Origin: Plasmodiophora brassicae
Lineage: Eukaryota
Reading direction: 5' to 3'
Length of the DNA: 64,000 nucleotides
Assembly (NCBI GenBank): GCA_036867785.1
Contig: CP145412.1
Location: forward strand, 496,001-560,000
How positions within the stretch are numbered: the stretch's first letter is position 1; each line of letters begins with the position of its first letter. The notes under the pieces are model-generated. The model worked only from the letters and a program-made list of their open reading frames with translations, had not been told where the DNA came from and searched no databases. Shown here in pieces: positions 1-50,725 of this stretch. The translations under genes were made by a program, and so were the position numbers.

Positions 1-134
1 ATAACGAACTGATGTATTTGGACAGGATCGTCACAGCAAGGGCCGCTGCGGGGTCGAGTACGGTCATGATCATGTGACCGGGTGGCAGCAGCATCTGAGC
101 AGCATCATCTGAGTACTGGTACTCTGGATGAACA
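1..134 (-). repeat. 3' LTR (partial)
   Basis: Identical to 5140-5273 over all visible bases. Confidence 0.93.
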
Positions 135-5033: not shown

Positions 5034-5135
5034 TAAGTGAGTTCGTTTGCTTGGGGCTCTTTGCGCAAGAAGCTTCTGTGCTAACGCCGCCGCTGCCCAC
5101 TACGGGGGCGGTCGGTCGCAAGAGTCGGCGCCTGG

Positions 5136-5273
5136 TGATATAACGAACTGATGTATTTGGACAGGATCGTCACAGCAAGGGCCGCTGCGGGGTCGAGTAC
5201 GGTCATGATCATGTGACCGGGTGGCAGCAGCATCTGAGCAGCATCATCTGAGTACTGGTACTCTGGATGAACA
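5136..5273 (-). repeat. 5' LTR (probably 138 bp, TG...CA)
   Basis: 5140-5273 match 1-134. Extending 4 nt gives a CA terminus on the minus strand. The inner boundary cannot be confirmed because the other LTR is truncated. Confidence 0.85.
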
Positions 5274-5674
5274 GTGTCGTTATTGCTCTGGGAGCCGTCG
5301 AAGGCTTCCCCGGCTGTGTAGTACATGGGCAGTCAGCTATCGACTACCTTCTAACCTGCCGTTGAGAGTCGCTCATTCACGACCCGCTGCTCGACTGGAC
5401 ATTCGGTTCTTGATACATTACCTTGCTGTGTAATCTGCATGCGACCGGGTGCGCGCCTCGCGGCCTTGAGCCTGATCCCGACCTGCCAGGGGTAGGTGGT
5501 GGAATGCGATGAATGGCCGACCAATTAGACGGCCCGCATTAGGCCACGCGCCCTGGCGAGAACTCAGCGTGACAAGGCGAGACAGCCCAGCATGACACGT
5601 TGTTGGCCGTTGAATCATCGACTGATGGGCAGAGCAATACCATCTTCGACAACAAAGTGAACCACCTTCGCACG

Positions 5675-6697
5675 ATGAACCACGCTCGGCTCGTGACCAG
5701 CATCACCACGCTGATGCTTGCCACGTCAGCGACAGCCTTCGATGAGGCCCGCGCGTTCTCGTCGTGCGGCCGAGACCGAAAGCTCGTTGCCCTGACGTTC
5801 GACGACGGCCCGTTTACGAGTAAGGGCGGGACGGATCGAATCCTGCAACAGCTTCGAGGCCTGGGCATTGCGGCAACATTCTACGTTACGCCGACCGCCA
5901 TGGGCGACAACGAGCTTGAGCTGGGCAAACGCTGCGACTTGATCAAGAGGCAGGTCGCCGACGGGCACTCGGTCCAGATGCACAGCTGGGAGCATGCGAT
6001 GGTCACGCCGGACACGCCGAACGATGTCATCCTGGAAGACATTGCAAGGGTCGGCAGGTTCCTGCACAAGTGTGGAGCGAGTCCGAGCCAGTACCGGCCC
6101 CCGTATGGCGTTCTCACTGCTCGGCAGGCCGACATCGTAGGGCAGGCCGGTTTGATCGTCGCCATGTGGAACGTGTCGCCAGGTGACACGGAATCCAAGT
6201 CGCTGACGTCGCAGCAGCTTCTCAACAGGGTCATGGATGCGTTCAACAACAACGTCGGGCTGGGCAACAGCGCCGTCGTCCTGCTGCACGACCACATGTT
6301 CGTCCACGACGAGCGCGCCGGCTTCCTGCCCATGGTCTATCATCAGTTCACATCCATGGGGTACGAATTCGTCACCGCCGACGAGTGCTACCGCCGTTGC
6401 AATCGCCCGATCTGCACGGGCGCGGGCGGGCCGCCCGGCGATCCCGGCGTCTTCGACCCGAAGCTGTACGTTGGCAGCACCACCACTGCCGCCGGCACCC
6501 GCCCGGTCGACGAGACGCCTGCCCCCACACGCCCGTCCTCGTCCGCCCCGCCCATGTGGGCACCCTCGTCTGCCCCGCCCATGTTGCCGCCCTCGTCCGC
6601 CCCGCCCATATCACCGTCCTCGTCCGCCCCGTCCATACTGCCGCTCTGCCTGGCCGTCGCCGTCATCACACTCACCGTGTTTATATATTCCCAGTGA
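5675..6697 (+). CDS. Secreted/GPI-like polysaccharide (chitin) deacetylase, CE4/NodB family, copy 1
   Basis: Signal peptide from ATG 5675; TFDDGP, HSWEH, RPPYG and LLHD motifs; Pro/Ser linker with PSSAPP repeats; hydrophobic C-terminus. Confidence 0.92.
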   Translation: MNHARLVTSITTLMLATSATAFDEARAFSSCGRDRKLVALTFDDGPFTSKGGTDRILQQLRGLGIAATFYVTPTAMGDNELELGKRCDLIKRQVADGHSVQMHSWEHAMVTPDTPNDVILEDIARVGRFLHKCGASPSQYRPPYGVLTARQADIVGQAGLIVAMWNVSPGDTESKSLTSQQLLNRVMDAFNNNVGLGNSAVVLLHDHMFVHDERAGFLPMVYHQFTSMGYEFVTADECYRRCNRPICTGAGGPPGDPGVFDPKLYVGSTTTAAGTRPVDETPAPTRPSSSAPPMWAPSSAPPMLPPSSAPPISPSSSAPSILPLCLAVAVITLTVFIYSQ

Positions 6698-7213
6698 GCT
6701 ATATACATACACCCGCATACAGACTGCCCCGAAGATGCCTTCGCCGCTGACCTTCGCACGTGCCTATTTGTTGCACTCGTCCGCAGCAGTCGTGCAGATC
6801 GGTGCCGCTGTATCGCGTCGGGGAGATGGTGTGTTGCACCCACGTGTGGGTTGTGTGTAGTTCGCAGTTCGCCGTGTGTGTGTGACGTGGCTGGCGGCCT
6901 GTATGTAGCGCGTGCGCGCCACCCGTGCCTCGAGGCTCGACCCTTGCTGTACCTATGTAGTGTCTGCACCGGCCGTTGTCCGGCGCAACCCGTTTCGTGT
7001 GTGCGGGTGATCCCTTCCGTGCGCCAGCCTGTATTTCGTTGGCAACGGCTCAACGTGTGACATGTTGGCAGTTGACTCATCGTTTGGATATAGGTTGGGC
7101 GGTTCGGTCGTGTGATGCTGACAGAACGATACCACTCTTATTGCACGATCATCAGCAGCGAACCACCTTTGGATTTCCTTGGCAATCTGTGGGCCCATTA
7201 ACGCAGACGCACG

Positions 7214-8158
7214 ATGAACCACGTCCGGTTCGTGACGTGCGTCACCACGCTGATGTTTGTCACGTCAGCGACAGCCTTCGATGGGGCCCGCGCTTTCTCG
7301 TCGTGCGGCCGAGACCGAAATCTCATTGCCCTGACGTTCGACGACGGCCCGTTTACGGGTAGAGGCGGGACGGAACGAATCCTGCGACAGCTTCAAGGTC
7401 TGGGCATTCCGGCAACATTCTACATTACGCCAGCCGCCATGGGCGACGACGACCTTGAGCTGGGCAGACGCTGCGACCTGATCAGGAGGCAGGTCGCCGA
7501 CGGGCACTCGGTCCAGATGCACAGCTGGGAGCATAAGATGATCAAGCCCAACACGACGAACGATGCCATCGTGAAAGACATTGCAAGGGTCGGCGCGTTC
7601 CTGCACAAGTGTGGAGCGAATCCGAATCAGTTTCGGCCCCCGTATGGCGTTCTCAGTGCTCGGCAGGCCGACCTCCTAGGGCAGGCCGGTTTGGTCGTCG
7701 CCATGTGGAACGTGTCGCCAGGTGACACGGAATCCAAGTCGCTGACGTCGCAGCAGCTTCTCAACCGGGTTATGGATGCGTTCAATAACTACGTCGGGCT
7801 AGGCAACAGCGCCGTCGTCCTGCTGCATGACCACATGTTCGTCCACGACGAGCGCGCCAGTTTTCTGCCCATGGTCCACCGTCAGTTCACATCCATGGGG
7901 TACGAATTCGTCACCACCGATGAGTGTTACCGGCGTTGCGACAGCCCGATCTGCACGGGCGCGGGCGGCCCGCCCGGCGATCCCGGCGTCTTCGACCCGA
8001 AGTTCTACAATGGCAGCACCACCGCCGCCACCGGCACCCGCCCCGCCGACGCAACGCCTGCCCCCACACGCCTGTCCTCATCCGCCCCACCCATACCGCC
8101 GCCCTGGCTGTCCGTCGCCGCGTTCACGCTGACGGTGTTGTTTATATATTCCCAATGA
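7214..8158 (+). CDS. Secreted/GPI-like polysaccharide (chitin) deacetylase, CE4/NodB family, copy 2
   Basis: Close tandem paralog of copy 1 with the same catalytic motifs and a shorter linker. Confidence 0.92.
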   Translation: MNHVRFVTCVTTLMFVTSATAFDGARAFSSCGRDRNLIALTFDDGPFTGRGGTERILRQLQGLGIPATFYITPAAMGDDDLELGRRCDLIRRQVADGHSVQMHSWEHKMIKPNTTNDAIVKDIARVGAFLHKCGANPNQFRPPYGVLSARQADLLGQAGLVVAMWNVSPGDTESKSLTSQQLLNRVMDAFNNYVGLGNSAVVLLHDHMFVHDERASFLPMVHRQFTSMGYEFVTTDECYRRCDSPICTGAGGPPGDPGVFDPKFYNGSTTAATGTRPADATPAPTRLSSSAPPIPPPWLSVAAFTLTVLFIYSQ

Positions 8159-8392: not shown

Positions 8393-9238
8393 ATGGACCA
8401 TCGTTATGTGAGCCTGCGGGCGACGACGCCGGCGTCGTCGCCCGCCCGACAATGCGTGCCGACCACGGATCTGGTCGGGCGGGCGCGACCGAGGTATTCG
8501 GCATGGCTGCAAGGTGGACCTGTGTGCGCCCGCGCGCGTGTACCGCGCCGCGTTCTGACGGGGCCGAACGACACAGGTCGCATCTGGATATCCATCCTGA
8601 TCGCGTTGTCGGTCGCCGTCGCCGCGTTCCTGGCGTTCTTCTTTGCCCCGAGATCCGTTGAGCTGTCGACCGTACAGATGAACATGGTGGATATACTGCC
8701 GTGCCGCGCACGTCCCAACCGGCTCTCACTGTTCGCAACGCCAGGAAATGTTCAAGTTCCACACCAAGACGCCGTCGATATCCACGAGGATTGTTTCGAA
8801 GCTGTCCGTGTCGAACCCGAACTTTGTCCAAGCCCAGGTGCACAGTATCGTCATTACCATGGTCTACCTGTGCAAAGAGTGTCGCAACGCAGACGGGTTG
8901 AACCTTGGCGAGCGATCCGTCGTGACCGACACGGTGTTCCCGCCGAGGACGCTCTCGGCAACGGTACACACGCCTGCGTTGCCGTCCTTCGACGTAACCT
9001 GAACGCTGTCGTTTAGCTGCCATGGACGCTCAATTTCGAATCGACGTTCGTCGACGCCAGCAGGTACGCCGACTTCCAACGCGACTTCAACTCGAATTGC
9101 ACACGCGACGGCATCTACTTCATCCACCCGACCTGCCTGGCGGATGTCTCCTACCTGGGCATGCGACGGAACGTGTCGTTCCCTGCGCCCCGAACGCGAA
9201 TCATTTGCGACGACCCTGTCCCGCCCGATGCCATATAA
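8393..9238 (+). CDS. Type II membrane protein, TMEM106/LEA_2-like (3 exons)
   Basis: TM helix ending FFFAPRSV, then a beta-rich domain with VSNPNF. Two GT-AG introns join the frames. Confidence 0.6.
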
Positions 9239-19281: not shown

Positions 19282-21168
19282 TGGTACTATGCAGGGGACG
19301 CGGCCGCACAGCACCCGCCGGCGTCGACCTGTTCCCCGTGCAACTGGTCACACAGCGCTGGGGCTTGGGCGCGCGGAGACACCGCTGTGTGTGCAGGTCA
19401 ATATCGGTTGATTGGGGGGCCAGCGGCAACCCGAAACGAAGGTGTGCCTCGACCGTTTCGTTGTATTGCGGGGTCAGCGCCTCAGCGGTGGACCAGCCCA
19501 ACGGAAGTCCCGACCTCTGGGCGCTCTGAACGTCACAGCAGAACGCGGTGCCCGCCTGGATTTGACCCTTGTAGTCGCGAGGTCGAACGGTGGAACGGAC
19601 CACATACGTCGGCGGTGATCGCGATGCGGTGCGGCACGAGGAGAACCGCCATCACCGACGATGCTGCGACCCCTGGGGTTTCTGCAAAGAGAAGTGCGGT
19701 AACGGGTGGTTCGTGAGACATAATAAACTCTGCTGTGGCGTGTTCTGCAGGACGAGGGTGTCCGCACAAAGTCGAGCAAGGCGCGTTGCCGGTGCCGGCA
19801 AGGGATTCACGCCGCACGTTTACGTATCGCAGAGACAGGTGGAACTTTCCGTGCTTAAGATTCCTTGTCGACCAGGGCACGGGTGAACTCCCCATCGTTG
19901 TCGGCGTTCTGCTCGTCAAGACATTTGAGCATTACGCCGGCAACGATGAGGAGTTCATCCATGCCTGGTCAACAAGATAGGTTAAACACGGAAAGGCCCA
20001 CATGTCTATCTGTCTCCCCCGGAATCACCACGCGTCATCGATCGCGTCAACGGCAGAAGCCAGGACGGGCAAGCACAGCGAACAAATGAGGATGGGTTTA
20101 TGTACAAATGGATGCTAACTGGACAGGGGACAGGGTGGACGTGTGACACGACGACGGACGGTCTCCATGCCGACTGTTGCGATGACGCACCGACATGGGA
20201 AGAGCGCTCAGCAGCTGATCGCCTTCAGAGACCCAGTGCGCTTGAGTGCCTAGACGGGCGAGGTCCCCCTGTGGGGCGCCTTCTGGGTTAGTGACGATCG
20301 CCCTACTCAGGCACAGACACCGTCAGACAACGAACGCACATCAGTCCTGCAATTGCATACGGAGACGTCGCCTGAATCGGCAGAAGCAGAGGTCCAGCTG
20401 CGTCCTGGGTTTGCAATCCGGCACCGATCTGCGATGCGATAGGTATCAGCAACCGAGCGCGCGCGCACCCCCATCACAGCTAGCTGGACTTGCCGGTCCA
20501 GGCGTGCCCGTGTCGTCGCGCGCACCCGACTGTGAGTCCTTGGACGATGCGCTCGCCTAATGCAACGTCGTTCCCACGTCAGACGTACGGGTCGGAACCG
20601 ACATCGGCTCGCCGCCTATCATACCGCCTCTGACGTTGCTGTCGGGTTCTCTTCCGTTGCCTGGTCCGCAATGAAACGTCAGCATTGGAGATCTGTTGCA
20701 TCGCCTGGTGCTGCCGTACCTGAAGGTAGGAGACCGCCAGCGTCAGTTTCTGCTGACGAGACAGGCCGCCCGCAGGATCCCGGCGAGTCATCAGCGCGAT
20801 CAGCGAGGCGCGCGGGTCGCCAGCTGTACTGCTCTGGTCGGGGCACTTCCCACCGACGGTAACTTGGGCGCTGTCCCCAGCCCTGTTCGAATCAGATCGT
20901 CAGGGCCCTCCAGGCGGCAGGCGACGTCCTGCGTACCGGTGCGATTTGGACTGGGCTTGTGACGATCGTCGCGATCGCGACACCCACCGACGGACTGGAA
21001 CAGAGAGGTCAGCGGTCACCTGTCAGTACGGGCACCGTTGCCGGGACGGACGTACGCGCTGCCCCTGCGCCGAACCGAGCACGTAGCGTCGACCAGAACC
21101 CCATGCCGCCACCGAGCAAACGCGCGTCCACGAACTGACCGACCTGCAACTCAACTGGGCCGGCGTAA

Positions 21169-21252
21169 CGTACCCTGGGATCGACCGATCGAATCTAGGT
21201 ACGGTACGGGACAGTACGTACCTAGACTCGGTCGGTCGACCACAGGGGTACG
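21169..21252. repeat. Imperfect inverted repeat/hairpin (about 35-bp stem, 13-nt loop)
   Basis: CGTACCCTGGGATCGACCGATCGAATCTAGGTACG pairs with CGTACCTAGACTCGGTCGGTCGACCACAGGGGTACG. Confidence 0.8.
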
Positions 21253-21534: not shown

Positions 21535-23423
21535 TCAGTACCGCATCGGGACGAACTTCACCTGGTAGTTCGGCATGTCCATGGGCGCCTTGGTATCCAG
21601 GTTGATCATCTGCATCTTGAACTGATCGTTGACCTTGTCCAGGTCACAGTTGTCGAGCAGCTGCGCGTGCGGGATCGTCACATCCATGTACCGGTCCATC
21701 GTGTAGAACATGCCTGCCCAAACGTGCTGCGGTCAGTCGGGGTGTCATCCATGCGGTCGCCAGCAGACCGACCCGAATTGCCCATGCCCAGGTTGTAGAG
21801 GATGCCGATACGGGTGCCTTTCATGTACGCGTCTATACGGGTCGGCGGTCGCGTCGACTGGACGTCCTTGATGATGCAGACGACACGAGCGGTGGCGCCG
21901 CGCTTCTGCGACCCCAGCATCTGCGACTTGTCAATCTGGCTGTCTTCCAGGTTCATCGGGATCTGCAGGCGCGACGGCGATGGATCCGAATAGTTCGCGA
22001 TGAAACGTCGCTCCATGACGTTCAGCTCGGGAGCGGGCGGGTCCACTGCATCAGTGCCCTCCTGCACACCACCACCCGCCTGCGATTCCGCTGACGCTGA
22101 AGGCGCCGCCGCCGGTGCCACCGGGTCCGCGCTTCCCGTCGAGATTGCAATCGGCTGCGTCGTGGGCGGCGAAGTGACGATCCCGGGCTGCATCGTTGTG
22201 TTCGTACGGTTGCCCCCATGCACTTTGCCGTTTGCCGTCTTGGTCGCGTTGCCGGTCGCGTTGCCGGTCGCGTTCTTGCCATGCGATGCCTGCGAGGCCG
22301 GCTGTGTCCCGTTCCCGTTCTTTGGTGCCTGCGTTCGGACCGCAGGTGGGAACTTGGGCGCCGTTGGTTTGGGGGTGGTTCGCCTTGGCGTTGGTGGCGG
22401 CGTCGTCCCAGTTGGAATCGGCAGGCCGGCCTTGTCGACCGTCCCGACACTCTCCTCCCTCGTTGGGTCGTTCTTCCCGACCTTCATGTCGGGAGCGCCG
22501 CGCATCCAGCCGGTCAGGTCCTTGATCTGGTCGTCGCCCGAGAACGTGCCCAGTGAGTCCTGCGAACGTCATCATCAGCCGGCATGGAACACGGTGCCGC
22601 AGGAGGGATCGCAACCTGCAAAGGCCCACGTGCCTCCTCCGGGTACATGGCGAACTTGTTGACCAGCTGCCATTGCCACCAGATACGATCGACATTGTTG
22701 TGGTTCAACCAGAAGATCGGATCGAACGCAGAGTAGTCGAGCGTGTTCACTGAAAACGAAGACGCTGAGTACAGGTCGTCGCCGGTCCAAGCCAATGCAG
22801 AACGTACTGTCCCCTCCAACGGACCCATGTACGTCATTGTGTGCACCCTCCAGGGCTGCTGACATTTCTTCAAAACTCTCCCGCGTGATCGTCAGGGCTT
22901 CTTGATCAGCCAGCGACTTGAACGGGAAGTCGGCGTTCATGTCTCGTTTCGTCATGCCATCACCTGCAATGACCCAGTTGGTTAGCGTTGACGTCGTCGT
23001 CCGCACTATGCAGAAGGGATCACCTGCTTTCGGCCCGGCCAGGAGCGGGTTGGCCTGGACGTTGCCCTGGGCGTCGACGTAGGTTGCGTCCAGAAGCGCT
23101 TGAGGGATGGGCCCAGTGGTCCAGTCCCAATAGGGCAACGGGACGCCGAGAGCGATTTCCAAACGCGCGATGAATCGTCGATGCCATGGCAGGAATTTCT
23201 TCGAGCCGTGTGGGCAGAACGAATGAGGGACGCCGTGGTCGCCGGCAACGGCAACCCATTGGCCGTTCTGCTGCAGCGTACGAACGGCGTCCCGAAACCG
23301 GGTCAGTTCATCGGGACTTAGGTCGGCCAGGTTCTTCCTGGGGCCAAGTTCACCATCAGCAATGGCAACGATGGCCGTTAGAACGACACCAATCCAGAGC
23401 GGTGCGGCTGCCGGTAGGTGCAT
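21535..23423 (-). CDS. Secreted tyrosinase / polyphenol oxidase with Pro/Thr/Asn-rich linker and C-terminal domain
   Basis: Signal peptide; CuA GDH...CPHG...FLPWHR; CuB LEGAHNDVH...DPIFWLNHNNVDR. All six His are present. Several introns. Confidence 0.92.
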
Positions 23424-23728: not shown

Positions 23729-26014
23729 ATGTTGCTCTTCGTGTTGGCAGCGGCGCTGGCGCCATGGTCGATGGCGTGCCCCTGTCCAGACGTGCAGCGG
23801 GTCACCGACGCCTCCCTCGACGGCCAGGTGATCCGCTTCCAGGTTGCTGCCGGCGCTGGCCTGCAGCAGCCCGCCTGCATTGATGTCGTGGGGGGATCGC
23901 CGGTCGCGCCCGGCGCCCAGCTCAACCTGTGGGCGTGCCAGTCCTCCTGGCCATCGCAGCAGTTCACGATCAAGGCCACGTTATCACCTGGCGTCTACCA
24001 GATACGCGCTGGAGCCGCATCCGCAAACCTGTGCCTCGACGCAGGGACAACGACTATCGCGAACGGGCAACGCCCGACCATAGGAGTCTGCTCAGACGAG
24101 GCGGTCGCCCAGCGATGGATACTGGACGCGTCCAATCCAGCCGGGTTTCGCGTCATTGCTGCTGGGACGTGCTTCGTCCTGGACCTATACCAGCAGTCGC
24201 TGTCTCTTGGGACTCGCATCCATCTATGGTCAGTCAGCAGCGCCAGCACCCAGCTCTGGAACGACGCGTCCCCGTCCCGCTCACCGGCATCCTCTGACGC
24301 CGACCTGGCAACGTGGGCGCACGCCAAAGTCGACACGAACAACGTCGGCGTGCTGGCGTCGCCTAGCGCCGTTCGCGGTTCGTCGTTCTACAAGGTGTCC
24401 GTCGCCAAGCGATCGTCACCCGTTCTGAAGTACAGCGCGTTCGTGTACGCTGCGTTGCCAAGGTCGGGCGGCCCTATGGTCGGTAAAGAGGACGGCGCCG
24501 AAACGAACGGGCAATCGTTTCACTGGTGCACGATCCCGCACAACGTCGACCTGTTCGTCGACGTGACGTTCCTGCAAGGGCGCCTGACGTCGACCACGAA
24601 CGTCACCATTCGCCCAGCGCGGTTTCAGGAGTCCCTCGCGACCTACGTCCTCGACCAGAGCACGTTGCGGGTGGCCATCCCCAGCCAGGTCGGCGGCATT
24701 CGCATCTCCATCGAGCTCAACGGCGCCAGCCAGTGGGTGTCTCCTGGCGGGCAGGTCGAACCCACGCAGGCCTTCATGCTGTTCACCATGCCATACGATC
24801 TCGGCGCCGCCAGCAGCCCGATCTCAGCGAACGTGCCGTACACCAGCGTCGCCCCGGGCGCGTCCGTCGACTTCACCACGATCCAGACACAGGCGATCGT
24901 GTTCCAGGCGGGCCTGTACCGCCTGGGCGCAGGCGCCCAGGCGAACCTGTCGCCCAACGTGAAATGGGTCCACCTGGCGCCGGGCGCCTTCGTCAGGGGC
25001 GCCTTCGTCTTCAACGCGCCGGCCGGGTCCAAGCTGCGCATCACGGGCGTCGGCGGCGTCATCTCCGGCGAGGAGTACGTGTACGAGGCGGACACGCGCA
25101 ACGCGAACTTCTCGCAGAACACGCAGGCCGACTGCTACGCGACCTGCGTGATCATGCTGCGCGTCAACAATGCGAACGGGGGGACTTTGACCATTCGAGG
25201 CGTGACGGTCAGCAGCCCGCCGTACCATTCGTTCGTGGCGTTCCCGGACGGGGCCAGGATGCTGATGCAGGTGGAGTACTACCACCAGGTGGCGGCCTAC
25301 TACTGGCAGACCGATGGCCTGGAGCTGTTCTCCTCGCCCGTCGCCGGGGCGGTCACCACGATGCGATGGTCGTTCTTCCACTCGAACGACGACGTCATCA
25401 AGGTCTACTATTCGAATCTCGTCGTCAGCGATATCGTCGTCTGGAAAGGGTTGAACGGGCCTGTCATCCAGTGGGGCTGGGCGCCACGAAAGATTTCCAA
25501 CGTGAGTCTAACGCGGATCGATGTCATTCATAACCGGATGCAGTACGACAACCACAACCTGTGCCTGATCAATGCCGCCAAACACTACATCGATTCGTAT
25601 CGGGCGGCGAATTCAGGAGCTGACGGATCCATGATCGTTGCCAACATTTCCATTACCGACCTGCGCGCTGAAGGCAAGGTGCCGTGCACGATGCGCATCT
25701 ACCCGCTAACAACATTGATTGGCCTGAGGATCACAAACCTGCACATCGACGATTGGGTTGATTCGGCGCACCTGGTCTCGAACGACCTCGCGGTACAATC
25801 GGGCGTGAACGGTGCGGCTAACGGGTACATTGCCGACGAGGTGTCGCTCTCGGGCGGTCCTGCTCCTGGCCAAGGTATCCACCTGACTGCCTATACAGTC
25901 GGAGATAAGGTCGTCGTCAAGAACGTCGACGGTACCGGCACGTACAATTCAGCGGGTCGCCTGCCCTGGTTCAGCGCGTACTGGGGCAAATGGAACGCAT
26001 CGGCATCTGCATGA
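23729..26014 (+). CDS. Secreted ricin-B lectin (CBM13-like) + glycoside hydrolase family 49 (dextranase/isopullulanase-like)
   Basis: Signal peptide; CIDV, QQF, CLDA, QRW and QLW ricin motifs; GH49-like WVHLAPGAFVRGA, ISGEEYVY, WQTDGLE, FFHSNDDVIKVYYSN and GPVIQWGW; intronless 761 aa. Confidence 0.85.
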   Translation: MLLFVLAAALAPWSMACPCPDVQRVTDASLDGQVIRFQVAAGAGLQQPACIDVVGGSPVAPGAQLNLWACQSSWPSQQFTIKATLSPGVYQIRAGAASANLCLDAGTTTIANGQRPTIGVCSDEAVAQRWILDASNPAGFRVIAAGTCFVLDLYQQSLSLGTRIHLWSVSSASTQLWNDASPSRSPASSDADLATWAHAKVDTNNVGVLASPSAVRGSSFYKVSVAKRSSPVLKYSAFVYAALPRSGGPMVGKEDGAETNGQSFHWCTIPHNVDLFVDVTFLQGRLTSTTNVTIRPARFQESLATYVLDQSTLRVAIPSQVGGIRISIELNGASQWVSPGGQVEPTQAFMLFTMPYDLGAASSPISANVPYTSVAPGASVDFTTIQTQAIVFQAGLYRLGAGAQANLSPNVKWVHLAPGAFVRGAFVFNAPAGSKLRITGVGGVISGEEYVYEADTRNANFSQNTQADCYATCVIMLRVNNANGGTLTIRGVTVSSPPYHSFVAFPDGARMLMQVEYYHQVAAYYWQTDGLELFSSPVAGAVTTMRWSFFHSNDDVIKVYYSNLVVSDIVVWKGLNGPVIQWGWAPRKISNVSLTRIDVIHNRMQYDNHNLCLINAAKHYIDSYRAANSGADGSMIVANISITDLRAEGKVPCTMRIYPLTTLIGLRITNLHIDDWVDSAHLVSNDLAVQSGVNGAANGYIADEVSLSGGPAPGQGIHLTAYTVGDKVVVKNVDGTGTYNSAGRLPWFSAYWGKWNASASA

Positions 26015-26780: not shown

Positions 26781-27395
26781 GAGTACTGAGCCGCGAATCC
26801 AATGACGTATGCAATGAAACGAACTAATCAATGATTGGCCAGACGAAATTGGAGCCGTGTGTGGGTACGCAGGGAGCACCTCCTGCTGCGCCTGGATACA
26901 GCGGCTGCTGGGTGCCCGCCGCCGTCCCACACGCTCCGAGTCTCCGTCCAACCTTGATCGTCGTGGGACGCCCGTGCAAGCGGCGTCGTCAGTTGTCGCG
27001 AACTAAGCGGGCCGCCGTGGATCGCGACGGCACGGGCGCTGCTAGCGCTCATGTCGTCGACAAATCGGACAATGCGCACGTCGGCCAGGCCGCTGCGGCA
27101 CGCGCGACCGACTATGACAGTTACTACGACGAAGTTTGGCAGCGAGCCGACGACGACGAGCCGTGCGCTGATCCTGACCGCATGTGGTATGACCACATAC
27201 GTGCGCGTACCTGACGAAACCGCCGCTGGGGCTGGACACCCCTGCCCAACATGGGCGCGCAATTGGGCCAGCGGCGACGTCTCATTCCGTGTGAACCGTA
27301 CCGTCCGATACAGGTCCCCCCCCCCCCCCCCCAAAGTCCAGTCAGCCGGTGATGAGTTCCAACTCTGTGCCTTCATTAAAATGGGCGGTGCTTGC

Positions 27396-28172
27396 TCATT
27401 TCTGGATCTTGTGGCGACAGCTCTTCTCGTGACTGCACAGGCGGTCTTTGCGGTTGTACGATTTCGGACATGTGCGATTTGGGCAATGGTACCGCTTGCG
27501 AACTAGAAGAACCTTGCAACTGTGATCCTGGTGCCGATTGAGGTGACTTGTGTTGGATACCTCCGTGCCGCAATAGACACACGTGCACGTGACCTTCGGG
27601 GCCGTGCTGGATGTTGTCGCCCCAAGTCGGCGCCCATAACACATAGGGGAAGCGTTTTCTCAATTGAGAAAACGCTTCCCCTATGTGTTATGGGCGCCGA
27701 CTGCCCCAGCATCAAAGTTAAATGTTGTGAGCTGGTCGTGATCGCACGACACCCACGTCTGCCTAACGAAGTCTAACATGCTGCTGTCGACGTCGGATGG
27801 TGCCCAGGTTGACACGCCGCTGAGCTTGTGATCAATGGCGTGCGACGCTGGGTCATGCATCGTTTCGTCGTCAGAGGTACCGGTCAGTACTGCTGTGTGC
27901 TCGATCCGCTCAATGTGACGTCCTGTGCTCGACGCTGCCGTTGACATCGCCACATCGTCGCCGACGTCATGCAGGTTGCCGATATTGTCGTTCTGGCAGG
28001 GAATTATGAGCGACTCGTACATGCCACAATGTAGGTCTTGATGATCATCTGGGTACGCATTCAGGTCAAAGTAGGCCTTGACTGCGTCGCCGTCGACGTC
28101 GTCATCGGCGCCGAGAGCGCAACGTCCAGCTAAGAACGCGAAGAGCAACGCGTACGATTTCCCAGGTGCCAT
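27396..28172 (-). pseudogene. Signal peptide + acidic region + two C2HC zinc fingers, interrupted by an 84-bp insertion containing stop codons
   Basis: ORFs 27681-28205 and 27396-27644 are in the same frame. Removing the palindrome plus one TSD restores ...FDAG-ATTSSTAPK...CVYC-x12-H-x4-C...CPNRTC-x12-H-x3-C (230 aa). Confidence 0.8.
27625..27702. mobile_element. 78-bp perfect palindromic insertion (two abutting 39-bp TIRs, AG...CT termini) with 6-bp TSD GCCCCA
   Basis: AGTCGGCGCCCATAACACATAGGGGAAGCGTTTTCTCAA followed directly by its exact reverse complement; GCCCCA at 27619-27624 and 27703-27708. Confidence 0.92.
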
Positions 28173-28586
28173 TGTCGATGTCGCTCGTGGATGCGCCAGC
28201 AGCAACGTGCAGATTGAGCCCGGCGCCAGGCCGTACCGCAGTTTCCAGGGCCTGGGCGGCGCCCCCGCGTACTGTCCGCGGTATACCAGTCGGGAACCTC
28301 GGTCGCCTTAATAATTAGCTGGCCAGAGATGAGGGAGGCGTGGCACCCCCAGCGCTGATCGCTGTTCCTGTTACGGATGCCCCCCCAAAGTGTCCCAAAC
28401 CTTTACCTCCGATCCTGCAGGCTATAATGCAACGCGTTTTCCCCAGTACCTATCGGCCCACTATTAATAGCAATACGCCACTGAGCTTTGTGGAGCTTCC
28501 GCTGCGGCGACTCTGTCCCGGGAACTGGGGACACCCCGTTTGACGACCACGGCGGTTTCCGATCCATTGCCGCAACCAACGTCTAA

Positions 28587-29235: not shown

Positions 29236-30132
29236 ATGGGCGTTCTGTCCTGGGTGCTGCTTGTCGGCATGGCGGCGGCGACCGCCGATCCCGTGCGGAT
29301 CGCTGTCCGGTCGTTCAACATTCGCACGGGATGGGCGCCGGACCTGTGGAACGCGTGGCCGTTCCGCGCTACGGCCTGCCTGCAGGCGATCGGTGATCCT
29401 CCCGACGGCGACCTGTCGCCCGACATCGTCGGCCTGCAGGAGGTCCTGTCGTTCCAGTTATCCAGGATCCGGGACGCGTTCCCGTACTACGTGTCCGTCG
29501 GGCATGGTCGCGGCGACGGTGGTACGCGCGGCGAGTACGGCCCGATCCTGTTTGATGCCCGTCGATGGTCGCTGGTCGACAGCGGCATGTTCTGGCTGAG
29601 TGATACGCCCACCGTTCCTGGAAGCAAACCGGCAGGCGCCAGCGGCTGCCCGCGCATCCTAACCTGGGCGCGTCTGCGACACCGCGCTGCCGGCGTCGAC
29701 GTCCTCGCCCTGAACACGCACCTCGACCACGTTTCTTCGCGGGCGCGACTCGACGGTGTGCATCGCATTCTGACGTTCCTTCGCGAATCCAACGTCGACG
29801 CCCTGCCCGTCATTCTGACGGGCGACTTCAACAACGACGTGGAGGATGCGCCGGAGATCACCGCCGTCAAGCAGGCCGGGTTCGTCGACAGCTACCGGGT
29901 CGTACACCCCGACGACGACGACGACGACGCCGGCACGTTCCACGCGTTCACCGGTCGGGCCGCGTCCGCCAAGATCGACTTCGTGTTCGCCACCCGCGGC
30001 CTGGCCGTCGTCGACGCCGGCATCGACCGGCAGAAACGATGCGGGCGGTACCCGTCGGATCACTTCCCGATTAGCGCCACCCTTGAACTGGATCCCCGAC
30101 GGGTATCACCACCACCGCCCACGGCCACCTGA
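29236..30132 (+). CDS. Secreted endonuclease/exonuclease/phosphatase (EEP) family protein
   Basis: Signal peptide; SFNIR, GLQEV, GMFWLSDTP, NTHLDH, GDFN, IDFVF and PSDHFP motifs; intronless. Confidence 0.92.
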   Translation: MGVLSWVLLVGMAAATADPVRIAVRSFNIRTGWAPDLWNAWPFRATACLQAIGDPPDGDLSPDIVGLQEVLSFQLSRIRDAFPYYVSVGHGRGDGGTRGEYGPILFDARRWSLVDSGMFWLSDTPTVPGSKPAGASGCPRILTWARLRHRAAGVDVLALNTHLDHVSSRARLDGVHRILTFLRESNVDALPVILTGDFNNDVEDAPEITAVKQAGFVDSYRVVHPDDDDDDAGTFHAFTGRAASAKIDFVFATRGLAVVDAGIDRQKRCGRYPSDHFPISATLELDPRRVSPPPPTAT

Positions 30133-49481: not shown

Positions 49482-49774
49482 CGACGGGCGACGGGTCGCA
49501 GAGCGCGTGCGGTCGCCCCGCACGCACTATAAATGATCGTAACGCGCCTGTCGATCCGATCCCGAATGGAATCCGCGCGTATAACCGGAAATGCGGCTTG
49601 CTGCTGCCGCCCCCCGGACGATACGGTAACGAACTAGTTAATCGAATAGGTAGGAGGTCCCTCGTTGCGTCCGGCGACAGTTACGATGCGGGCGCTGAGG
49701 CTGATCCGACGGAGCGGCTGGCGGTGCGGTTCTGAGTGGCGCTTGGTGACGGCGACGGTCATTTTGTTTTGGAT

Positions 49775-50725
49775 ATGACAACGACAACGACAACGACGAC
49801 GACGACGATAGTATACGGGCGGCATGGGCCGCCGGCATGTCGCACGGGCCAGCTCAGCATCGTGTCGTTCAATATTCTGTCGCAGACGTGCCTGGATGCG
49901 CATGTCGCCTGTGGGCAGGAGGACCGGCAGTACGGGCATGTGGCGCCCGCCTGCCGGGCCTGGCGGCATCGCCTGCCCCTGATCGTCTCGCTGCTGACGG
50001 AGATGTCGCCTTCGATCGTGTGCTTGCAGGAGGTCGATCCGGATACGTTTCACAGTGACTTTGATGAATGGATGAAGGCGCGTGGATACGCCAGCGTTCT
50101 GCAAGATAGTCGTCACGGGGTCTGGTTCGTCAACGCTATCCTGTACCGGTATGACCAGGTATCGGTAGTCTGGCAAGAATCAAGGTCACGGGCGCTGCTT
50201 GTCGAACTACGAACGGCGTCCGGCGACAGCGTACTCGTCGGGAATCTTCACCTGCAGGCCATGCCGGCGGAGGCGCCGACCCGGTTCTGTCAGGCGCGCA
50301 ACACGTTGAAACGACTGCGACATCGCTTGGAGACAACAGGGGGCGACCCGACAGCTGCGAGGATCGTGCTCTGTGGCGACTTCAACGCTGACGACGGTGG
50401 CAGCGTTTCTGAGCTGCTTCGGCAAGGCTCGATGGAGCCCCGTCACGTTGATGCAGAATCGGGGACGGTCGTGAACGACGAAGAATTTCAGCATCCGTTC
50501 CGGTTCGAGAAGGTGACCGGAAGCCCGGCACCTTCCTACGTGACACCTGGGCACAGTCACCTCGTGGACCTGATTTTCGTGCAGAACCTCAAGGTCGACG
50601 CCGTGTTGAACCCGCTCGATGGTGCGGAAGAACTGGATCAGGTCACGCGAGCCGATGTGCCGCCGTCTGCCGCGTGGCCATCAGATCATTTGCCAGTCGG
50701 CGCCCTGCTGACGATAATGAGGTAA
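49775..50725 (+). CDS. EEP-family phosphodiesterase (CCR4/Angel/PDE12-like)
   Basis: SFNILSQ, W..R..LI, CLQEVD, NLHL, CGDFN, DLIF and PSDHLPV; start codon uncertain. Confidence 0.85.
   Translation: MTTTTTTTTTTIVYGRHGPPACRTGQLSIVSFNILSQTCLDAHVACGQEDRQYGHVAPACRAWRHRLPLIVSLLTEMSPSIVCLQEVDPDTFHSDFDEWMKARGYASVLQDSRHGVWFVNAILYRYDQVSVVWQESRSRALLVELRTASGDSVLVGNLHLQAMPAEAPTRFCQARNTLKRLRHRLETTGGDPTAARIVLCGDFNADDGGSVSELLRQGSMEPRHVDAESGTVVNDEEFQHPFRFEKVTGSPAPSYVTPGHSHLVDLIFVQNLKVDAVLNPLDGAEELDQVTRADVPPSAAWPSDHLPVGALLTIMR

Follow-up and report, generated by a model that had tools for sequence, protein, structure and literature searches.

The window analysed here, a 64-kb stretch of Plasmodiophora brassicae DNA, holds on its minus strand, from 28205 to 27396, one reading frame into which a 78-bp perfect palindrome is set, bordered on either side by the hexanucleotide GCCCCA. 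The sole internal stops of this frame, a TAG and a TGA, both fall within the palindrome. The gene parts and the components of the palindrome, the latter read directly from the sequence, are as follows.

27681..28172, minus strand: upstream part of the gene, whose 163-aa product has an N-terminus resembling a signal peptide; it ends at a TAG stop (27683-27681) inside the palindrome
27396..27618, minus strand: downstream part of the gene, with the zinc-finger-like motifs C-x2-C...H-x3-H and C-x4-C...H-x5-H
27644..27396, minus strand: separate 82-aa open reading frame, whose ATG start is supplied by the palindrome
27619..27624, no strand: left GCCCCA copy of the target-site duplication
27625..27663, no strand: left arm of the palindrome, 39 nt, starting with AGT
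27664..27702, no strand: right palindrome arm of 39 nt, with ACT at its end and the left arm as its exact reverse complement
27703..27708, no strand: right GCCCCA copy of the target-site duplication, identical to the left copy

Several further genes and an LTR element share the window. Its first 5273 positions are occupied, on the minus strand, by a Ty3/gypsy chromovirus with an uninterrupted 1629-aa gag-pol open reading frame (reverse transcriptase, RNase H, integrase and chromodomain). As far as its LTRs lie in the window (1-134 and 5140-5273), they match each other at 100% identity, with the 3' LTR extending past the edge, and to judge by these features the chromovirus looks young and possibly active. 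Open reading frames in 5600-8158, 29236-30132 and 49736-50725 correspond to two adjacent polysaccharide-deacetylase and two endonuclease/exonuclease/phosphatase-family proteins, while two others code for a tyrosinase-domain protein (22575-23423) and for a GH49 enzyme that carries ricin-type lectin domains (23729-26014). Hydrophobic, signal-like starts were seen on several of these deacetylase, phosphatase-family, tyrosinase and GH49 reading frames.

The palindrome itself (27625-27702) was checked by script and consists of two 39-nt arms that are 100% complementary and abut with a spacer of 0 nt, so that its centre, CAATTG, spans 27661-27666. Its tips read AGTCGG...CCGACT, with the AGT/ACT unit present once. 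The two GCCCCA copies adjoin the palindrome ends directly and the bases outside them are unlike each other, which makes the direct repeat exactly 6 bp long. Direct reading and script therefore agree with the initial annotation, which had described two exact abutting arms centred on CAATTG, GCCCCA flanks, and AG...CT termini combined with a 6-bp duplication; the tips are more precisely AGT...ACT. When the whole 64 kb was scanned for hairpins (loops up to 40 nt, score threshold 14), four loci reached the threshold, the palindrome with a score of 39 and the runner-up with 24. A chance origin of the palindrome is excluded, two arm matches having been produced by none of 100 dinucleotide-preserving shuffles of the window, and a hand estimate puts the probability of a 6-bp flank identity, at about 60% GC, near 3e-4 (0.26^6). 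As is expected of a MITE (miniature inverted-repeat transposable element), the palindrome is small and non-coding, carries terminal inverted repeats and is flanked by a target-site duplication.

Removal of 84 bp, a multiple of three, leaves a 726-nt frame with a single terminal stop, as a script check confirmed; the earlier statement that an excision of this length restores the frame thus holds. With the palindrome in place a TAG is met seven codons into it, and the product is cut to 163 aa without the zinc fingers. This product is identical to a protein (P0001) found on three contigs in a collection of 5.8 billion proteins. Searching the collection with the interrupted gene gave 4 hits out of 78 candidates, and besides the gene's own product the only relatives were three P. 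brassicae proteins of 39-48% identity (P0002-P0004). In all three of these paralogues the sequence (...AG(A/E)(T/S)TS...) is uninterrupted precisely at the insertion site. Because the three paralogues read straight through this site, we take the 78 bp and the duplication, on comparison of the sequences, to be an in-frame insertion into coding sequence and not native gene sequence. The same had been proposed on the strength of the restored frame, and it is supported by the contiguity of all three paralogues and by the position of both internal stops within the palindrome. Two of the paralogues (P0002 and P0003) are named C2H2-type domain-containing proteins by NCBI, and their C-terminal parts align with the downstream gene part, on which Pfam zf-C2H2 scored 20.9 bits, below the cut-off of 25.2. 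The third (P0004) carries the source name 'Secreted protein', and because of this name and of the N-terminal sequence the start of the 163-aa product is probably signal peptide-like. The interrupted gene appears to belong to a Plasmodiophora-specific family and to code for a small zinc-finger-like protein with a signal-peptide-like start.

The region from 27000 to 28400 was compared with Logan contigs from four public runs: three of DNA type (X9, X11 and X13), which come from three different studies, none of them flagged as a possible source of the window, and one that is guessed to be RNA (X15). Both junctions of the palindrome were found in all three DNA-type runs, with one contig reaching from the left flank to 27654 and another from 27673 into the right flank, and the centre was crossed by a 54-nt record (27625-27678) in two of the three (X9 and X11). 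These break points match what is expected of a 31-word graph: flank contigs stop 30 nt into the arm because words wholly inside one arm are common to both arms, and the 48 interior words reduce to 24 (24 + 30 = 54). In X9 the same palindrome is retained together with a 3-bp deletion relative to the window at 27316, and X9 is therefore not the same data filed again. This deletion falls within a run of C (27310-27333), at which the X11 and X13 contigs break and which constitutes a small length polymorphism among isolates about 300 bp from the palindrome. On the other side, each of the three DNA runs shows a 37-nt contig (27927-27963) that is covered roughly two- to threefold more deeply than the contigs next to it and probably holds words common to the zinc-finger-family paralogues.

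Long-read chimeras are known to give spacer-less perfect palindromes, and an assembly or fold-back sequencing artefact was for this reason weighed as a source of the structure. Against it stand the two junctions in three of three DNA runs from three studies, the centre in two of the three, the RNA-like run, which enters the palindrome from both sides, and the prediction of the truncated 163-aa product on three contigs of the protein collection. An assembly artefact is excluded for practical purposes, and the probability that we would still grant it is negligible; the contigs answer the earlier concern that sequencing data might lack the palindrome, which is real DNA. It was present in every isolate data set examined. 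The initial annotation had also suggested looking for an empty-site allele. No empty-site joint was found in the contigs of any of the four runs, where contigs can hide rare alleles, and no uninterrupted near-identical protein occurred among the 4 hits from the 78 candidates.

The same contigs bear on copy number. The 54-nt interior record is unbranched in X9 and X11; since the presence of the arm at a second locus would branch it, there is no second context sharing the arm in the contigs of these two runs. In X11 the interior depth was 91.2 against 41.6 and 65.5 in the flanks, about twofold, as expected from the two arms of one copy. In X9 it was only 16.6 against about 70 in the flanks, for which a sequencing bias against hairpins is our guess, and X13 had no interior record. 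These data indicate one palindrome copy per genome and no donor sharing at least 31 nt of the arm, by an argument that is blind to diverged copies sharing fewer than 31 identical bases. Within the 64-kb window no further arm copy was found with up to 3 mismatches, the only two matches being the two arms themselves, and blastn-short of the arm returned only chance matches of at most 12 nt. Exact-pattern scans of metagenome contigs, prokaryote genomes and viral contigs gave 0 hits in all six scans, blastn of the arm against plasmids and phages gave no match, and a protein search with the open reading frame that reads through the palindrome yielded one candidate, with none scored. The further arm copies that had been anticipated are thus missing from the window, and the X9 and X11 contigs leave no room for one. 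The same contigs leave no room for the arm at the tips of long terminal inverted repeats elsewhere, where at least 31 nt of it are shared. Neither multiple copies with different duplications, as in a MITE family, nor an autonomous element sharing the termini was found in the window, in the X9 and X11 contigs or in the collections searched.

Two candidate sources of the arm were considered and set aside. A 10-nt identity with the arm (GGCGCCGACT) lies beside the LTR end of the window's Ty3/gypsy element (5123-5132). A gapped scan across all 64 kb gave it a score of 20, which ties for seventh place and stands twelfth in the list, against 22-24 for the best chance hits, and it was taken as chance. 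A mitochondrial or host-plant origin of the arm is unlikely, as the interior record would then be branched and, given the high copy number of such a source, raised in depth.

The arms differ at none of their 39 paired positions, and the 6 + 6 bases of the duplication are identical. The initial annotation had read this perfect symmetry as a sign of a recent event, which does not follow: 39 arm positions bound neutral divergence only loosely, limiting it to a few per cent, and arm-to-arm correction could alternatively keep the arms symmetrical. No further stop is present in the rest of the frame, which mildly favours either a young event or continued use of parts of the gene.

In the run guessed to be RNA, two contigs (27371-27646 and 27679-27893) reach 22 and 24 nt into the palindrome and take in its first in-frame stop, with the centre (27647-27678) lacking cover. 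A joint that skips the palindrome was found in none of the four runs, and in the assembled molecules of this RNA-like run the insertion is retained and not spliced. An introner reading was rejected on these grounds, in one run of guessed RNA, and for the lack of an AG at the 3' edge of the element on the gene strand. In the same run the depth of the downstream contig, in the sense of the gene strand, was 20.8 against 5.1 upstream, about a fourfold step in crude contig depths from one run, which may reflect an internal start, hairpin cleavage, 3' bias or nothing.

A 211-nt region containing the palindrome is predicted to fold at -120.2 kcal/mol (z = -10.45), and in the two predicted folds the palindrome forms a stem of 36 to 37 bp closed by a 4-nt AAUU loop. 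Because of this hairpin shape, a search of Rfam returned miRNA-precursor look-alikes only, far under the gathering scores. As described in part of PMC13547706, P. brassicae has a small-RNA pathway for which a Drosha-like enzyme is required, and miRNAs arise from at least one palindromic region. One miRNA from Table S8 of that paper, the 22-nt Pb-miR066 of strain PbJS, matches the window exactly at 19896-19917 on the plus strand and anchors it to PbJS Ctg_4 near 1.146 Mb, from which the palindrome is predicted to lie near 1.138 or 1.154 Mb of that contig. At neither position was an miRNA, phased or hc-siRNA locus present in Tables S6-S8 of PMC13547706, in the portion comprising Pb-miR032 to Pb-miR200 and all Ctg_4 rows. 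The Pb-miR066 match lies within an imperfect hairpin (19876-19965) with 39-nt arms, of which 33 positions are paired, and a 12-nt loop; another hairpin-type inverted repeat (21173-21247) has 31-nt arms, 27 positions of which are paired, and a 13-nt loop. Neither these two hairpins nor a third at 8416-8445 is related to the palindrome by sequence, and a clean 6-bp duplication is missing from all three.

How such a structure came to lie in the gene can be approached from its borders. A clean duplication abutting inverted-repeat ends is the signature of a staggered-cut transposase or integrase, and captures by end-joining normally come with loss or microhomology. Since an exact 6-bp duplication abuts the ends of the palindrome, a mobile-element origin is favoured. 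We put at about 0.6 the probability that the palindrome is the non-coding relic of one transposase- or integrase-type insertion. For the parent we favour a long-inverted-repeat element that would have collapsed in place between mirrored self-complementary motifs. A staggered 6-bp cut in the coding region of the Plasmodiophora-specific small zinc-finger gene, followed by fill-in, would have created the GCCCCA duplication around a larger element, whose inverted termini would have been longer than about 40 bp. A self-complementary motif, for example CAATTG, that is present in two inverted repeats is also a direct repeat at mirrored positions, and slippage or microhomology-mediated joining of the two motif copies could then have removed the whole interior, leaving a stub that is perfectly symmetrical, has no spacer and still lies between the two copies of the initial duplication. 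From in-place collapse there would follow one copy, no donor and no loop.

Precedents for parts of this route exist. According to portions of PMC3814204, MITEs arise through internal deletion at microhomologies of 6-8 bp after abortive gap repair, and for a Tn10-related transposon part of PMC12524634 describes nearly precise excision by copy choice between short direct repeats, for which the inverted repeats are proposed to form a hairpin. P. brassicae has both DNA transposons and integrase-bearing LTR elements (Table S5, PMC13547706), and the chromovirus that looks young lies in the window itself. Every perfect palindrome has, by its nature, a self-complementary centre, so that this feature is consistent with collapse without being evidence for it. 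Judged from the sequence, it would be the duplication, and no other feature, that marks the palindrome as mobile. Its length of 6 bp is presumably unlike the usual lengths in the terminal-inverted-repeat classes of P. brassicae (CACTA, Mutator, PIF, Tc1 and hAT). A MITE that arrived from another locus is disfavoured because the palindrome is a single copy and its donor is missing, and a Made1-like element that consisted of inverted repeats only and was inserted as such is likewise less favoured than collapse in place. The initial annotation had itself envisaged an element whose interior was deleted between its terminal inverted repeats. That part of its proposal is favoured by the single copy and the missing spacer, while the Polinton label that it attached to the element draws only on the length of the duplication and a 3-nt tip.

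This label nonetheless has several observations on its side. The duplication is exactly 6 bp (GCCCCA on both sides), and the AGT...ACT tips resemble the end motifs of vertebrate Mavericks, for which parts of PMC8097293 report 6-bp duplications and (AGT)2//(ACT)2 or (AG)3//(CT)3 ends. Polintons possess long inverted repeats, as the parent in the collapse model must; if the source was exogenous and virus-like, the missing donor would be accounted for; and the one pointer to such elements close to P. brassicae is a Paulinella preprint on rhizarian-type Polintons (10.1101/809541), which in a figure legend lists it among the taxa. Against these points, the end motif of the palindrome (AGTCGG...CCGACT) is single and not doubled, with one AGT/ACT unit set against a reference motif that comes from vertebrates only, and a 3-nt tip arises by chance in 1 of 64 cases. 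Among genes of the relevant kinds, Pfam analysis of 17 open reading frames recovered only the Ty3/gypsy polyprotein, and the window holds no pPolB, capsid or Polinton integrase. The 78-bp element is not associated with long inverted repeats around pPolB, integrase, protease, ATPase or capsid genes, nor were its termini found to be shared with such an arrangement, across the 17 open reading frames, the window and the X9 and X11 contigs, which also lack any further arm copy. Maverick or Polinton elements are unmentioned in the P. brassicae genome papers that were searched by term, no such class appears in the repeat table of PMC13547706, and a full-text literature search returned no account of them in this organism. 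The label is also not exclusive. Duplications of 6 bp are made, we assume, by other families as well, namely IS3EU, Dada and some LTR elements. The proposal of a Polinton-type element thus keeps its duplication and its tips and lacks linked pPolB, capsid or integrase genes and any other copy of the arm. A Polinton origin of the palindrome is possible but unproven, and we regard it as unlikely that the stub was left by a Polinton-like element or a virophage-like virus once integrated here, or that it is a mini-element which an integrase of this kind moved. A related and doubtful version would make the palindrome the fossil of a single exogenous integration of long-inverted-repeat DNA, for example of a Polinton-like virus or virophage, that shrank symmetrically through microhomology-mediated deletions to a tolerated minimal palindrome.

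The palindrome might also have been made without any mobile element. A snap-back, self-primed hairpin of DNA or cDNA could have been captured at a staggered break, with fill-in producing the 6-bp repeat. Self-priming, by reverse transcriptases or in repair of the polymerase-theta type, yields perfectly complementary arms, reverse transcriptases are encoded nearby, and the single copy with no family found would suit a one-off event. The template of such a hairpin is, however, absent from the genome data, where the interior record is unbranched in X9 and X11, and from the viral, metagenome and prokaryote sequences covered by the six exact-pattern scans. A capture would also need a 4-nt turn that happened to be self-complementary (1 in 16), and end-joining usually shows deletion or microhomology and no clean duplication. 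We hold such a capture to be improbable. A template-switch mutation during replication, which would build an inverted repeat from local sequence in one event, as for new miRNA hairpins, can make perfect hairpins (as part of PMC10710096 sets out), and a transcribed hairpin, given the RNA-like contigs and the predicted fold, is what results here. It should, however, leave one arm native, whereas all 78 bp and the 6-bp repeat are extra relative to all three paralogues. No source copy lies within the 64 kb, and a flanking duplication is not predicted, all of which leaves template switching very improbable.

The relic of a collapsed long-inverted-repeat insertion, which remains our preferred reading, can be set beside several known systems. 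Made1, a human MITE derived from Hsmar1 and the source of the mir-548 family, is like the palindrome in that it is about 80 bp long, is nearly all inverted repeat (2 x 37 bp + 6 bp), and as a near-perfect palindrome forms a stable RNA hairpin when transcribed (parts of PMC1784062); portions of PMC3814204 report it to be a microhomology-mediated deletion derivative. Its near lack of a spacer, as given in the same part of PMC1784062, weakens the premise of the initial annotation that common MITEs carry an internal spacer. The two differ in other respects: Made1 is a high-copy family with an autonomous parent, while the palindrome occurs once, is palindromic right through its centre and has a duplication of 6 bp, and no parent of it was found. 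The duplication of Made1 is TA, and its copy number is high.

Nearly precise excision of the Tn10 type offers a closer parallel to the proposed collapse. There a deletion joins short direct repeats that lie within the inverted ends, pairing between these ends promotes it, and a small palindromic stub is left that keeps the original target duplication, as the palindrome does (parts of PMC12524634); the element in question is a composite transposon of bacteria, its duplication is 9 bp long and the process was shown experimentally, whereas the collapse of the palindrome is only inferred. Nearly precise excision leaves a 50-bp remnant, and its original descriptions are reportedly those of Ross (1979) and Foster (1981).

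Polintons or Mavericks resemble the palindrome in the 6 bp of their duplication and in having ends of the AG(T)...(A)CT kind, and they have the long inverted repeats that the parent in the collapse model would need (parts of PMC8097293). The palindrome, unlike them, has no such genes present or linked, and its terminal motif is undoubled. The full elements are large. Polintons and Mavericks measure 15-20 kb, encode pPolB, integrase and capsid proteins, and have inverted repeats of hundreds of bp. Hairpins from template switching and palindromes in coding sequence likewise place a perfect inverted repeat in transcribed or coding DNA (portions of PMC10710096 and PMC6649704), but there either one arm belongs to the native sequence or both code for protein, whereas the arms of the palindrome are foreign, bear stops and are flanked by a duplication. 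No description of such a spacer-less palindromic insertion was found among the matches listed in our literature search.

Overall, the structure is an insertion scar, palindromic, single-copy and orphan, that probably goes back to a lost element with long inverted repeats. Palindromes of such a size are usually thought fragile. The locus provides a natural case, if one of modest importance, in which a nuclear gene of a eukaryote stably keeps a 78-bp perfect palindrome in isolates sequenced independently of one another. It further suggests that an element with long inverted ends entered the compact genome of P. brassicae in the past and was later lost, and it offers a simple rule, by which mirrored self-complementary motifs act as direct repeats and allow such elements to collapse into loop-less stubs. 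For the gene family, the truncated zinc-finger member is both a lineage marker and a natural truncation allele. For the organism, an mRNA is predicted to carry a perfect stem of 37 bp, in a species whose small-RNA pathway is Drosha-like. If the stub were the fossil of an exogenous integration, spacer-less palindromes with target duplications would be recognisable end-state scars by which past virus-like invasions could be traced in genomes without intact copies, and the mRNA hairpin would be a natural substrate for the unusual Drosha-like pathway.
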